Part shown: piece after piece, positions 1,281 through 20,494 of the stretch
Layout: every line of letters begins with the position of its first letter
How positions within the stretch are numbered: position 1 is the first letter of the stretch
Virus record (IMG/VR): IMGVR_UViG_2531839667_000007
Length of the DNA: 36,911 bases
Strand: one strand, 5' to 3'
From: a virus
Taxonomy: Duplodnaviria; Heunggongvirae; Uroviricota; Caudoviricetes
Made by a program: the position numbers and the translations under genes
Notes under the pieces: generated by a model
The model's input: only the letters and a program-made list of their open reading frames with translations
What the model was told of the DNA's origin: nothing
The model's database searches: none

Positions 1281-1848
1281 TATCGCGTCCTCAACAATGA
1301 ATTTTGTGATGCGGTGCCTGGTGCCTCCAGGTGACGTTAACCAGTTAACAATTAACGCCGGATACAGAGAATCCACCCATAACACTGTTTTTGGTTTTAA
1401 CTGTTCCGCGTGCGCTCAGCCGCATTCACCACATCACAAAATTCACTTTAAAAAGGGCGGCAGAGCAGTCACGGAGTAAAACTGATACCGCCAAACGTCA
1501 CCAGAAAATTGATAACAGAGGGCGTTGCAGCGGGGTTGTCACTTAAGCGTATGGTCAACCTGACAACCCGGTGTCCTCAACGGGGGAAGGAATAACCCCG
1601 CCATACTTACCGCCGCGCCATTTCGCGGATTGCCACAACCGGAAGCGCACGGTCGACGAAAATTTAACGACAGGCTATCTATGAACCAGCTACCTCGCCG
1701 TGCGCTTTCGCGTTATGGTCTGACTTTTCAGGGAAATATCCTTTCAGTAAACTGTCAATGCCGGATGCTCACCCGTGTCCGGCGCACGCACTCCACCTCA
1801 CCCGTGGAGAACTCCTTAATTACTAACCTTAGCTTTGTTGATTAGCTA

Positions 1849-7076: not shown

Positions 7077-7252
7077 TGCTGCGGGTGCTTGAGGCTATCT
7101 GTCTCAGGCATGAACACCAAAAGGCAGATAGAGAAAAGCCCCAGTTAACATTACGCGTCCGGCAAGACGCTTAACATTAATCTGAGGCCATATCTATGCT
7201 CTACACACGTAGGTTAGCCTCTTACGTGCCGAAAGGCAAGGAGAAGCAGGCT

Positions 7253-7408
7253 ATGAAGCAGCAAAAGGCGATGCTTATCGCCCTGATCGTCATCTGTTTA
7301 ACCGTCATTGTGACGGCACTGGTAACGAGGAAAGACCTCTGCGAGGTACGACTCCGAACCGGCCAGACGGAGGTCGCTGTCTTCACAGCTTACGAACCTG
7401 AGGAGTAA
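7253..7408 (+). CDS. hok: Hok/Gef family type I toxin (51 aa)
   Basis: MKQQKAMLIALIVICLTVIVTALVTRKDLCEVRLRTGQTEVAVFTAYEPEE aligns with plasmid R1 Hok along its length; strong SD AAGGCAAGGAGAAG; in-frame upstream ATG at 7196. Confidence 0.8.
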   Translation: MKQQKAMLIALIVICLTVIVTALVTRKDLCEVRLRTGQTEVAVFTAYEPEE

Positions 7409-17655: not shown

Positions 17656-17696
17656 AAAACCCCGTTTGTTGGCACCAAGCGGGGTTTTGTGTTTCT
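17656..17696 (+). terminator. terminator-like hairpin between endolysin and Rz
   Basis: ACCCCGTTTG / CAAGCGGGGT stem with one mismatch, then TTTTGTGTTT; A-rich upstream. Confidence 0.4.
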
Positions 17697-17721
17697 GACC
17701 TTGAGTAAGGCAAGGGAGAAC

Positions 17722-17904
17722 ATGGCGAAGTATAAACGAATTCTGTTGAGGTTGACCATGAAAAACGGCCTTGAACTGAAAGCGCCTGTAACTGATGACA
17801 TCAGCAGAGCACTGGCTTTTGCCATTAAGTGGGTGGCGGTCGGTGTTGCTGTGTCCCCGATGCTGTATGGGCTGGCAAAACTGGTCATTGCGTTGAAATC
17901 GTGA
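17722..17904 (+). CDS. small predicted membrane protein (60 aa, [11 protein letters not shown]...)
   Basis: Internal ATG of track ORF 17689..17904, AAGGGAGA SD; hydrophobic C-terminal half. Confidence 0.4.
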
Positions 17905-17918
17905 AGGGAGGATTAAGC

Positions 17919-18050
17919 ATGTCAGACAAACTCATAACGCTGGCGAAGATCCTCTGTGTAATTGTCGGCATTTCATTTTCACTAATGCTGGTTGCTCTTT
18001 TTCTTTCCATGGCCTGGATGATGTTGTCTTCGTCGGGGTTGCTGGGGTGA
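17919..18050 (+). CDS. small hydrophobic peptide (43 aa, [43 protein letters not shown])
   Basis: Internal ATG of track ORF 17829..18050, GAAGGGAGG SD at 7 nt; single predicted TM helix. Confidence 0.35.
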
Positions 18051-18061
18051 ACATAAACCGA

Positions 18062-18520
18062 ATGCTTTCCGCGTTTATCGTTATTCTGCTGGTGGCCTGT
18101 GGTGCGCTGTGGATGGCAACAGACCATTACCGTGATAACGCGATTACCTACAAAGCGCAGCGCGATAACAAAGCCAGTGAACTGAAGCTGGCGAACGCAA
18201 CCATTACTGATATGCAGGTGCGCCAGCGCGATGTTGCTGCGCTCGATGCAAAATACTCGAGGGAATTAGCCGATGCGAGAGCTGAAAATGAAACTCTTCG
18301 CGCTGACGTTGCCGCTGGTCGTAAGCGCCTGCGGATCAACGCCACCTGTCCAGGCTCCGTGCGTGAAGCCCCCACCACCTCCGGCGTGGATAATGCAACC
18401 GGCCCCCGACTGGCAGACACCGCTGAACGGGATTATTTCATCCTCAGAGAACGGTTGATGACAATGCAGAAGCAGGTGGGAGGGGCGCAGGAATATATCC
18501 GCACTCAGTGTATTAACTAG
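18062..18520 (+). CDS. Rz: Rz i-spanin (alternative GTG start 18047)
   Basis: N-terminal TM then [32 protein letters not shown]... closely matching lambda Rz. Confidence 0.85.
18288..18458 (+). CDS. Rz1: Rz1 o-spanin lipoprotein, embedded in the +1 frame of Rz
   Basis: [17 protein letters not shown] has lipobox LVVSAC; proline-rich PPPPPAW; wholly inside Rz. Confidence 0.75.
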
Positions 18521-18543
18521 TATTTTTGTTATCCGGAGAATGC

Positions 18544-18768
18544 ATGAAGAAATTACAGGTAACCGTAAAGCCTCTTCAGGGAACAATTCTGTTCCGTATT
18601 TTGCAGCGTGGTCGTGTTCTTGTTGAAGGTTCGTTCAGTGGTAAATGTATGCAATTACACTCCCGGACCTTTCAGGTGAATGCCACGAATGAAGAGCTAA
18701 CCGTTGAGTGTACGATGAATACCGCTAAATGCCGCATGGTATCCGCTGCATTACAGCCAGTGTGTTGA
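18544..18768 (+). CDS. hypothetical late protein (74 aa from MKKLQV)
   Basis: Internal ATG of track ORF 18526..18768 with GGAGA SD at 6 nt; not Bor-like. Confidence 0.45.
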   Translation: MKKLQVTVKPLQGTILFRILQRGRVLVEGSFSGKCMQLHSRTFQVNATNEELTVECTMNTAKCRMVSAALQPVC

Positions 18769-19124
18769 GCGACCTTATTATCCATGCGCGGTATTGTCGC
18801 CGTATTCCCGCATTAACAGAGACCGCAGCCCGACCGGGAGACTCCTCTGTGCGAGTGTGCGGGGATAATCAAAAACGATACACACCGGGGTTTACCGCGT
18901 TAACGGAGCGCGGCGTTGTCCCCTCATAGTCGCATGTCCGGTGCGATGGTGGAAGAAGCCGGATGTTTATCACTATTAATTGATGACACAGAAATGGATT
19001 CATTGAATTTCAGCACGTTTTTGTATTCGTGTTATTGAACATCTGTTTATTTTACTTTTAACATATTGATAATAAAAAGAGCTGTAAATCTTTAGATGAG
19101 TCGATTTTGTCCGGGGAAGTTCAA

Positions 19125-19265
19125 ATGGATTTTATGCTGACGGTTTCTGGTGTGGTTATCCTGTCCATTGCTTATACTGCAGATAAATATGGCTGCCATT
19201 TGTTATCACGTATTGGCGCTTATTGTTCGTTGATGCTGATTTTCTCGTCGCTTTTTTTTGAGTAA
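19125..19265 (+). CDS. small predicted membrane peptide (46 aa)
   Basis: Own translation MDFMLTVSGVVILSIAYTADKYGCHLLSRIGAYCSLMLIFSSLFFE; below track cutoff; AT-rich region. Confidence 0.3.
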   Translation: MDFMLTVSGVVILSIAYTADKYGCHLLSRIGAYCSLMLIFSSLFFE

Positions 19266-19397
19266 GTTATATTAATTATAACAAATAATTTTCTGTGTTA
19301 TTTTTTCAGGCTATCCCGTCAGAGGGGAAGCCTGTACTGCCGGGGAGCGAATGGAAAACTGATGTGTCCGGTAACTGCGTGTTCTGTGAACACCATG

Positions 19398-19583
19398 TTA
19401 CTTAATTATGTAATTCATACCCGAACTCTCTGTTGACAGCCTTCTTCTGCAGGCTTCAATAACCCACGCTGAAAAGTTTCCTGAACCTTTCAGATCAAGA
19501 GCGATGTTAATTTGTTCAATCATCTGGTTTGGAAATCGGATGTTGCGGGTTGTTGTTCTGCGGGTTCTGTTCTTTGATGACAT
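19398..19583 (-). CDS. Arc/MetJ-type ribbon-helix-helix DNA-binding protein (61 aa)
   Basis: RNIRFPNQMIEQINIALDLKGSGNFSAWVIEACRRRL fits the Arc-like RHH pattern; GGGGA SD; transcribed opposite to late genes. Confidence 0.55.
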   Translation of the reverse strand: MSSKNRTRRTTTRNIRFPNQMIEQINIALDLKGSGNFSAWVIEACRRRLSTESSGMNYIIK

Positions 19584-19789
19584 AATGTTTCCCCATATTC
19601 AGTGTTGCTGATTTGTATTATCTGAAGTTGCTTTTACGTTAATTTGACGCAGATCAATTAATACGATACCTGCGTCATAATTGATTATTTCTCGTGGTTT
19701 GATGGCGTACACACATGTTGTGATAAACCTTATATAGATGATAATCATTATCATTTCGTGGGTCCTTTCCGGCGATCCGACCGGTTACG

Positions 19790-19801
19790 GGGCGGCGACC
19801 T
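19790..19801. other. cosN cohesive-end site (GGGCGGCGACCT)
   Basis: 45 nt from 19790 are identical to the left-end sequence of phage lambda as recalled (GGGCGGCGACCTCGCGGGTTTTCGCTATTTATGAAAATTTTCCGG), about 185 bp before the small terminase gene. Confidence 0.8.
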
Positions 19802-19835
19802 CGCGGGTTTTCGCTATTTATGAAAATTTTCCGGG

Positions 19836-19940
19836 ATCCATGTCCGGTTTCTCTGCAAGTTAACTATATGAAAAATATAAAAACAGGCTGTCCGTGAACC
19901 GGACATGTGCAAAAAACGGACATGTAAACCGGACATGACC
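19836..19940. repeat. cosB-like array of CGGACATG repeats (direct at 19900-19907, 19917-19924, 19930-19937; inverted at 19839-19847)
   Basis: Repeats read from sequence between cosN and the small terminase gene; differ from lambda R sites. Confidence 0.55.
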
Positions 19941-19984
19941 GGTTTTGTGCTGATTGTGAGGTAAGAGTTTTTGCGAGGTGAGGA

Positions 19985-20494
19985 GTGGCTACGCAGACTG
20001 AAGTTGCCAGGCATTTGAGTCTGACCGATCGCCAGCTTCGCAGATTGCAGAAATTACCGGGTGCCCCGGTCTCGAATAAGCGAGGGCAACTGGATCTGGA
20101 TGCCTGGCGCGATTTTTACATATCGTATCTGAGAAGAAGTAAAAACGATGTGCCTGATGGCGATAGCGAAGAAGACTATGAAGAGAAATTGCTTATTGCC
20201 AGATGGGAACTGACAGCAGAACAGGCTGTTACACAGCAGTTAAAAAATGAGGTGTCAAAAGGAAAACTGATTGACACCGGGTTCTGTATTTTTGCCCTCA
20301 GTAAGCTGGCAATGGCGTTATCCAGTACGCTTGATTCCATCCCTTTATCCATGCAGCGACAGTTTCCTGATTTAACACCGCGCCATCTTGACCATCTGAA
20401 AACCCTTATTGCTAAGGGGGCAAATCAGTGTGCGCGGGCAGGGGATAAATTACCGGATTTACTTGATGAATATATCAGAGCAACAACTGAATAA
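19985..20494 (+). CDS. nu1: terminase small subunit (Nu1-like, divergent N-terminal DNA-binding region)
   Basis: C-terminal half matches lambda Nu1 (...SIPLSMQRQFPDLTPRHLDHLKTLIAKG...); GTG start after GAGG; overlaps large terminase start. Confidence 0.85.
   Translation: MATQTEVARHLSLTDRQLRRLQKLPGAPVSNKRGQLDLDAWRDFYISYLRRSKNDVPDGDSEEDYEEKLLIARWELTAEQAVTQQLKNEVSKGKLIDTGFCIFALSKLAMALSSTLDSIPLSMQRQFPDLTPRHLDHLKTLIAKGANQCARAGDKLPDLLDEYIRATTE

Follow-up and report, generated by a model that had tools for sequence, protein, structure and literature searches.

Introduction

Small accessory genes occur between the lysis genes and the DNA-packaging site cos of lambdoid phages. In phage lambda, the described cases are the bor and lom morons and lambdap79, the latter in the slot of ybcW. 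The product of lambdap79 is expressed and activates the Vulcan defence system, and lambda escapers swap the lambdap79 region by recombination with Qin (bioRxiv 10.64898/2026.09.04.749371), an example of turnover within flanks that stay conserved. In the DLP12 prophage of Escherichia coli K-12, the gene order is rzpD-borD-ybcV-ybcW-ylcI-nohD. There, RNA-seq finds the ybcW and ylcI transcripts to be convergent and overlapping (PMC12288877). YlcI of DLP12 and YnfO of Qin form a known family without a characterised function; ynfO is counted among the K-12 y-ome genes (PMC11551758), and the literature that we searched contains no functional study of ylcI or ynfO. Other described systems bear on this region as well: ribbon-helix-helix (RHH) repressors such as Arc and Mnt (P22 immI) and CopG/MetJ, RHH antitoxins such as ParD, the C-terminal domain of HicB, TacA and VapB, and the prophage small RNAs AgvB, AsxR, STnc100, Pas and DicF, which are conserved non-coding elements.

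Here we describe the interval between Rz and cos in a lambda-like E. coli prophage. The window, the whole stretch of DNA that was analysed, has 36,911 nucleotides (IMG/VR record IMGVR_UViG_2531839667_000007). As in DLP12 and Qin, the interval carries a leftward gene of the YlcI/YnfO HMM family, with the same 52-aa core and the same place before a Nu1/nohD-type terminase gene; here a 46-aa membrane peptide replaces ybcW, and bor and ybcV are missing. As with the lambda morons, the small rightward genes are exchangeable by recombination and have AT-rich flanks. Lambda bor, by contrast, is leftward and encodes a lipoprotein, the genes described here are unrelated to it in sequence, and an autonomous promoter or terminator for them is putative. 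The interval also includes a conserved non-coding element of about 180 nt. Like the prophage small RNAs, it has a fixed position in lambdoid prophages and is multi-copy in EHEC/EPEC. It differs from them in matching none of their Rfam models, in sitting past Rz rather than near Q/stx, and in having a predicted pseudoknot and no conserved promoter or terminator.

Results

Layout of the interval

In Table 1, we report the features of the interval and its surroundings. The flanks of the cohesive-end sequence match those of lambda, DLP12 and others. With the lambda cohesive end at 19790-19801, position 19789 is therefore the right end of the mature chromosome. The first-pass annotation had placed three ORFs in the interval, and all three coincide with the genes that PGAP calls in an E. 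coli genome with 100% identity to query positions 18400-19900. Its description of the interval as AT-rich applies to the right-hand two thirds (about 18900-19800, GC 0.37-0.41) but not to 18600-18900, where GC is 0.49-0.51. It had also named this site as an accessory position of lambdoid phages (bor, ybcV, ybcW). Synteny with DLP12 agrees, and puts ylcI in the same slot in both.

Table 1. Features between the lysis cassette and the terminase genes, with positions in the window.
Feature	Position	Strand	Description
Interval			Mosaic region at the right end of a lambda-like E. coli prophage, between lysis genes and DNA-packaging site
Rz	18047-18520		Pfam Phage_lysis; last gene of the lysis cassette
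Rz1	18273-18458		Embedded within Rz
74-aa ORF	18544-18768	+	Directly 3' of Rz, in late-transcript direction
Short ORF over the element	18778-18885	-	35 aa, GTG start
180-nt non-coding element	18784-18963	+	Sharply bounded, highly conserved
Exchangeable moron-like module	18970-19395	+	AT-rich upstream region, 46-aa gene, T8 run, two hairpins
46-aa ORF	19125-19265	+	Within the 18970-19395 module
ylcI/ynfO-family gene (DUF3950)	19398-19583	-	61 aa; PGAP label YlcI/YnfO family protein
ylcI-to-cos spacer	19584-19789		Candidate palindrome, promoter-like match, cosQ/left-half-cosN homologue
cosQ/left-half-cosN homologue	about 19757-19789		Inside the ylcI-to-cos spacer
cosN 12-nt cohesive end	19790-19801	+	Exact GGGCGGCGACCT; left end of the mature chromosome
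cosB-type repeats	19839-19945		CATGTCCGGTTT repeats past cosN
Nu1	19985-20494		
Terminase A	from 20409		

Outside the interval, two more small ORFs lie between the endolysin gene and Rz (17689-17904 and 17920-18050, plus strand). PGAP calls both as hypothetical proteins (60 and 43 aa); the one at 17689-17904 matches PHROG 1115, and the one at 17920-18050 is hydrophobic. Rfam matches at gathering score elsewhere in the prophage are DicF, the sok antitoxin RNA, three tRNAs and STnc100, at 1455-1506 (minus), 7083-7258 (plus), 11503-11749 (plus) and 11829-12018 (plus). The prophage of one 100%-identical strain (NZ_CP106929, locus L001, 5185-5541) has a deletion that starts just past the ylcI-cos region and ends midway through J, the tail-tip gene. 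In that strain cos, terminase and head genes are gone, and ylcI and the small ORFs are kept.

The ylcI gene, its spread and its homologue in phage lambda

By its profile matches, the leftward 61-aa gene is a member of the YlcI/YnfO family (DUF3950). The protein scores 67.5 bits on Pfam DUF3950 (PF13132, cut-off 25) and 35.2 bits on NCBIfam YlcI_YnfO_N (NF041551, cut-off 30), and it matches PHROG 949 with an E-value of 9e-32. YlcI is a basic protein with a conserved core (residues 1-52) and a variable C-terminal tail. The 156-nt core sequence is present in 9564 copies in 4184 of 5426 complete E. coli genomes (77%), with up to 12 copies in a genome. For the 52-codon core, comparison of divergent alleles gives dN/dS of 0.03-0.2 at dS of 0.4-2, thus the protein is under strong purifying selection. 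Past residue 52 the tail varies by allele, for a total length of 61 aa here, 64 aa in lambda and in DLP12 YlcI, and 77 aa in Qin-type YnfO, which places a mosaic joint within the 3' end of ylcI. The variable tail of the 61-aa allele (19398-19427) is co-inherited with the adjoining 18970-19395 module.

Phage lambda has a 64-aa YlcI homologue at 48109-48303 (complement) of NC_001416, 90% identical over residues 1-52. These positions carry no gene annotation in that RefSeq record. The lambda ORF (locus L048, 2710-2904) is identical in sequence to the ylcI-family ORF of two E. coli chromosomal loci (L013 and L025). We found the lambda homologue because many ylcI matches in unrelated taxa proved to be contigs of lambda control DNA. 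The lambda right end appears on contigs of about 3.5 kb or 48.5 kb in Streptomyces, Pseudomonas, Cohnella, Flavobacterium, MAGs and others (among loci L004-L043). These contigs almost certainly reflect contamination of public assemblies by lambda control or spike-in DNA, and we set aside many such "homologues", which come from assemblies of Streptomyces, Pseudomonas, Bacillus and others. Many error-ridden "YlcI" protein clusters come from lambda control-DNA contigs. Locus L042 is a frameshifted copy of ylcI.

For the fold of YlcI, an Arc/MetJ-type RHH protein had been proposed. The fold comparison is compatible with an RHH fold; the sequence-profile comparison does not support a relation to Arc. 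Aligned by hhalign, the NIRFP of YlcI falls in register with the NLRWP of Arc at a probability of only 3.7%, and neither this comparison nor a PDB profile search gives a significant relation to a solved RHH protein; among PDB sequences, the profile searches return no RHH match for YlcI. A HicB-like PHROG match has an E-value of 0.012. We reasonably infer an RHH-compatible fold from the model comparison and call YlcI RHH-like only, since the profiles give no support for membership in the Arc family. We have moderate confidence that YlcI is a DNA binder. Unlike Arc, Mnt, CopG and MetJ, YlcI is without a significant profile relation to that group and its operator is only a candidate. Unlike the RHH antitoxins, it comes without a partner toxin.

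Neighbours of ylcI

The position of ylcI is constant. It is the leftward gene that immediately precedes cos or the gene for the small terminase subunit in this window, in DLP12, in lambda and in 33 variants of the ylcI-cos spacer. In every lambda-cos locus, its start codon is about 200-260 bp from cosN, and 206 bp here. Stx and O157 phages with an unrelated HNH-TerS-TerL module again have ylcI as the last leftward gene ahead of it, 42 bp from the HNH start. In these HNH-type phages, the homology to the window ends exactly at the ylcI ATG, and both upstream contexts, lambda-type and HNH-type, supply a Shine-Dalgarno sequence for ylcI. This is the one constant gene of the interval, found in lambda, DLP12, Qin and Stx phages next to at least two unrelated packaging modules.

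What lies beside ylcI depends on the phage. The neighbour may be ybcW (DLP12, lambda p79), ybcV (17 nt downstream of ylcI on the same strand in that variant), the 46-aa gene, or only the 180-nt element. The phages compared share no conserved partner gene of ylcI, the interval described here has no co-directional toxin gene beside it, and no neighbour matches a toxin or defence family (PADLOC, TA families).

The apparent "Rosetta-stone" fusions of DUF3950 with DUF1398 (P0243 and similar) are artefacts in which TGA is read as Trp. The long "YlcI fusions" P0243, P0244 and P0259, in clusters with hundreds of members, are gene-caller artefacts, either of TGA as Trp or of upstream read-through. One longer protein is real: P0193 (129 aa) is a DUF3950 protein with a C-terminal helix-turn-helix segment similar to Terminase_2 (29.1 bits). 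It is weak evidence for a role in packaging, because it occupies a regulator position in an integrase-primase satellite. Distant DUF3950 members (33-53% identity), P0193 among them, are in integrase / AlpA-like / primase satellites of Xenorhabdus (L044-L047) and in one metagenomic contig (L049). In the satellites, the DUF3950 gene is divergent from the primase operon and has palindromes or repeats upstream, which by analogy is the usual layout of an autoregulatory repressor.

The spacer between ylcI and cos

The 33 sequence variants of the ylcI-cos spacer are about 95% identical, and the spacer is about 93% identical to lambda's right end. A search of 19584-19789 for palindromic operators, as the first-pass annotation had suggested, identifies a candidate, inverted repeat I6 (ATCAATTAATACG-N7-CGTCATAATTGAT, at 19653-19685). 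The palindrome is nearly invariant among the 33 variants, where most of the spacer is conserved and not the palindrome alone. It is the best candidate operator for YlcI that the sequence offers, and our confidence in it is low. The HNH-type phages do not have it. There the region upstream of ylcI is entirely different, therefore the palindrome is not a universal operator, and we see no operator shared by the lambda-type and HNH-type upstream regions.

A consensus scan and inspection by eye give no leftward sigma-70-like promoter for ylcI. A rightward sigma-70-like match at 19718-19745 (plus strand) lies 45-70 bp before cosN and is aimed across cos into Nu1. The rightward hexamers are retained in both spacer variants (19718-19745 in the window and 3866-3837 in locus L003) despite a 7-bp indel and different -10 hexamers. 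The number of promoter-like matches in the spacer is not above that of shuffled sequences.

A conserved 180-nt non-coding element

The most conserved feature of the interval, absent from the first-pass annotation, is the 180-nt element. When four phages are aligned, the sequence just past the stop codon of the 74-aa ORF hardly varies, and the flanking genes diverge. Across phages with divergent flanking genes the element is about 98% identical, and conservation falls off abruptly on either side. We count 4175 copies, spread over 1590 of 5426 E. coli genomes (29%), and also find it in more than 120 IMG/VR contigs. The element is always past the lysis cassette (or past Rz and the 74-aa gene) and ahead of the packaging module, which holds for at least three types of terminase. 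Of 83 viral loci, 42 have ylcI between the element and the packaging module. In a Salmonella enterica prophage (L180, 4658-4881), the 5' domain of the element, 86% identical, abuts a cosQ/cosN homologue with no ylcI between them; this prophage has a homologue of the 74-aa gene and a 68-aa ORF downstream of Rz. In the lambda and K-12 DLP12 loci that were compared, no copy was found.

The element has no codon periodicity. A mechanical 66-aa ORF over it (18729-18929), which matches a PHROG "Rz-like spanin", was rejected, as it has stops in relatives and no periodicity, and so was a 10-codon ORF at the start of the element, for which the start codon is not conserved. No Rfam family matches the element at gathering score, only eukaryotic families at chance level, with E-values up to 10. 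As for known small RNAs, AgvB, AsxR, Pas and STnc100 were considered and do not match. No paper with the core sequence of the element was found in the literature, and we describe it here as a previously undescribed element.

The proposed structure of the element has nine helices including a pseudoknot, for a total of 49 pairs, arranged as a 5' domain with helices P1-P3 (approximately nts 1-100) and a 3' domain that holds the pseudoknot. In an alignment of 34 closely related sequences, the same sequences from which the structure was derived, 97.6% of the cells are paired, compared to 36-60% with the partners slid. Ten pairs have compensatory changes, three helices have double compensatory changes, and none of 500 shuffles reaches the observed values. 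Common polymorphisms place C/U opposite G or A/G opposite U, changes that are tolerated on the plus strand only; as a result, the pairing is 97.6% on the plus strand but 88.5% on the minus strand, with 166 G-U cells on the plus strand versus 16 on the minus strand. This strand-specific pairing argues for an RNA that has the same sense as the late transcript. Within the element, conservation is highest in an invariant unpaired A-rich stretch, AAUCAAAAACGA. The fold of the single sequence is not more stable than that of shuffled sequences, with z-scores of -0.92 on the plus strand and +0.30 on the minus strand. Recombination-driven homogenisation could add to the conservation of the element. No conserved promoter or terminator of its own is seen; the element would therefore be a segment of a long late mRNA, and it looks like that rather than a stand-alone small RNA gene.

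The two exchangeable small genes

The 74-aa ORF is predicted to encode a small all-beta sandwich protein. The 46-aa ORF had been described as a predicted membrane peptide, and its sequence is in keeping with this, with two hydrophobic segments (Kyte-Doolittle means above 2) split by a polar loop. The 46-aa ORF belongs to a 426-bp unit (18970-19395) that is present as a single block, with 97-100% identity, in 734 of the 5426 genomes. A single 77% variant of this unit keeps a 45-aa ORF that is 71% identical with conservative changes and a dN/dS of 0.31, and its AT-rich upstream stretch is conserved even better than the ORF. Pfam, NCBIfam, PADLOC and PHROGs give no family match for the module. 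The 46-aa gene fills the slot of ybcW in DLP12 and of lambdap79 in lambda, convergent with ylcI. In the convergent spacer between them, there are two hairpins (19371-19401 and 19307-19334), one of which overlaps the ylcI stop codon (GTAACTGCGTGTTC/GAACACCATGTTAC); from their sequence, they are possible terminators for the convergent transcripts.

We read the 74-aa and 46-aa ORFs as genes because they are conserved. To judge from that conservation, they look like real, weakly constrained and exchangeable accessory genes, and we are fairly confident that they are of the moron type. The 46-aa peptide, being a short hydrophobic membrane peptide, has one property of type I toxins. No Rfam antitoxin RNA matches in the interval, and the only analogy for an antisense-regulated type I toxin is the convergent overlap of ybcW and ylcI in K-12.

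Discussion

We propose that the interval combines a single conserved backbone gene and a single conserved non-coding element with two small genes that are exchangeable, an explanation that, taken as a whole, we consider somewhat likelier to be right than wrong. The gene identities, their distribution, the purifying selection, the synteny, the absence of a partner gene and the covariation pattern are direct observations.

For ylcI, the reading that we started from was that of the first-pass annotation, in which the RHH gene is an antitoxin or the repressor of a cargo module. YlcI would then control the 46-aa membrane peptide as a small toxin, or some other cargo gene of the interval. The distributions argue against it, with ylcI in 4184 genomes and the 46-aa module, which accompanies ylcI in this window, in just 734. 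So do the contexts, in which ylcI is found with ybcW, with ybcV, with only the RNA-like element or directly before HNH, and the lack of a conserved partner, of a co-directional toxin here and of any PADLOC or TA-family match. What was found is a widespread conserved orphan, the very outcome that had been named in advance as refuting an antitoxin. Without a conserved partner gene, the antitoxin reading of ylcI therefore fails, and as an explanation of the interval we regard it as highly improbable. A different account ties YlcI to cos and packaging, as a factor that binds beside cos. It could modulate or mask cos, repress leaky rightward transcription of the terminase genes, or assist the termination of packaging at the right end; masking or repression in a lysogen would protect the prophage cos, and with it the chromosome, from cleavage by terminase. 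In two unrelated terminase systems, ylcI is invariably the final gene ahead of the packaging module and is divergent from it, which speaks for such a role, as do the rightward promoter-like hexamers between palindrome and cosN in both spacer variants and the match of a distant homologue's C-terminal segment to the N-terminal domain of small terminases (Terminase_2, 29.1 bits). However, that fusion is in the regulator position of a satellite and the match may be to a generic helix-turn-helix, the promoter-like counts do not exceed chance, and many phages with the same cos are without ylcI (the Salmonella locus, and 41 of 83 viral loci). Minimal lambda cos fragments also package without the ylcI region. 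We take a packaging role to be unlikely. The reading that we keep is that ylcI is a stand-alone phage gene, neither module cargo nor antitoxin.

The 180-nt element might not act as RNA at all. It could be a site in the DNA, a minus-strand ORF, or a recombination "linker" homogenised among co-resident prophages. It lies at a mosaic joint in a region known to recombine, its 5' domain in a Salmonella prophage directly abuts cosQ, which could hint that it functions as DNA close to the end of the chromosome, the minus-frame ORF is open in all variants examined, and the z-score of the minimum free energy is not significant. Yet the minus ORF has many radical replacements and no codon periodicity, polymorphisms are tolerated on the plus strand only, as the G-U cells attest, double compensatory changes occur in three helices, and sharp borders together with strand-specific pairing are not expected of a pure linker. 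We find these non-RNA explanations rather unlikely. The element as a cis-acting or processed RNA at the boundary between lysis and packaging is a reading of the covariation pattern in which we have moderate confidence.

The DNA binding, operator, transcription units, RNA function and small-ORF translation that we infer for this window may combine as follows. Leftward transcription of ylcI would begin somewhere in the 206 bp that separate its start codon from cosN, and YlcI would act as a dimeric, site-specific DNA binder or autoregulator, for which the nearly invariant palindrome is the most likely target. YlcI would thus act on phage DNA, probably regulating its own gene from the ylcI-cos spacer, independently of the small ORFs. 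The 180-nt element would be a cis-encoded structured RNA segment of the late (pR'-type) transcript at the junction of lysis and packaging genes, with a putative role at the mRNA level, in processing or stability, or as a processed Hfq-type RNA. The 46-aa membrane-peptide gene would occupy the rightward slot convergent with ylcI that elsewhere holds ybcW or lambdap79.

Two linked readings go further, and we offer them tentatively, as having a modest chance of being correct: the element as a new phage RNA class, and ylcI as a leading-end immediate gene or a prophage guard. As a new class of cis-regulatory or processed RNA, the element would possibly mark, in lambdoid phages of Escherichia and Salmonella, the point on the late transcript where lysis genes give way to packaging genes. 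For instance, it could act as a switch of RNase processing or stability by which the mRNAs for lysis and morphogenesis are uncoupled, or be freed from the late transcript as an RNA that Hfq binds. In lambda, the right end of the DNA is the last to be packaged and the first to be injected, so ylcI would enter first, its upstream end leading, which we give as a lead and not a result. Approximately 200 bp from the chromosome end and pointing inward, ylcI could be such a "leading-end" immediate gene, or else it could guard cos and the terminase genes in the prophage.

The interest of the interval rests on the unannotated lambda homologue and the undescribed RNA-like element and not on the toxin-antitoxin idea. 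If neither ylcI nor the element is functional, the interval is an ordinary mosaic accessory region. The region from Rz to cos is one in which phages trade accessory genes, among them lambdap79, which is sensed by a bacterial defence system. If the 180-nt element is an RNA, it would add a new conserved non-coding feature to the late operon of Stx and EHEC prophages, which are medically relevant. The ylcI/ynfO genes are among the most widespread uncharacterised prophage genes of E. coli, in 77% of complete genomes and with up to 12 copies in each. Because phage lambda has an unannotated homologue beside cos, under strong purifying selection, the function of YlcI is directly testable in the best-understood phage, and if ylcI is such a leading-end gene or guard, phage lambda would have a functional gene that is missing from its reference annotation.
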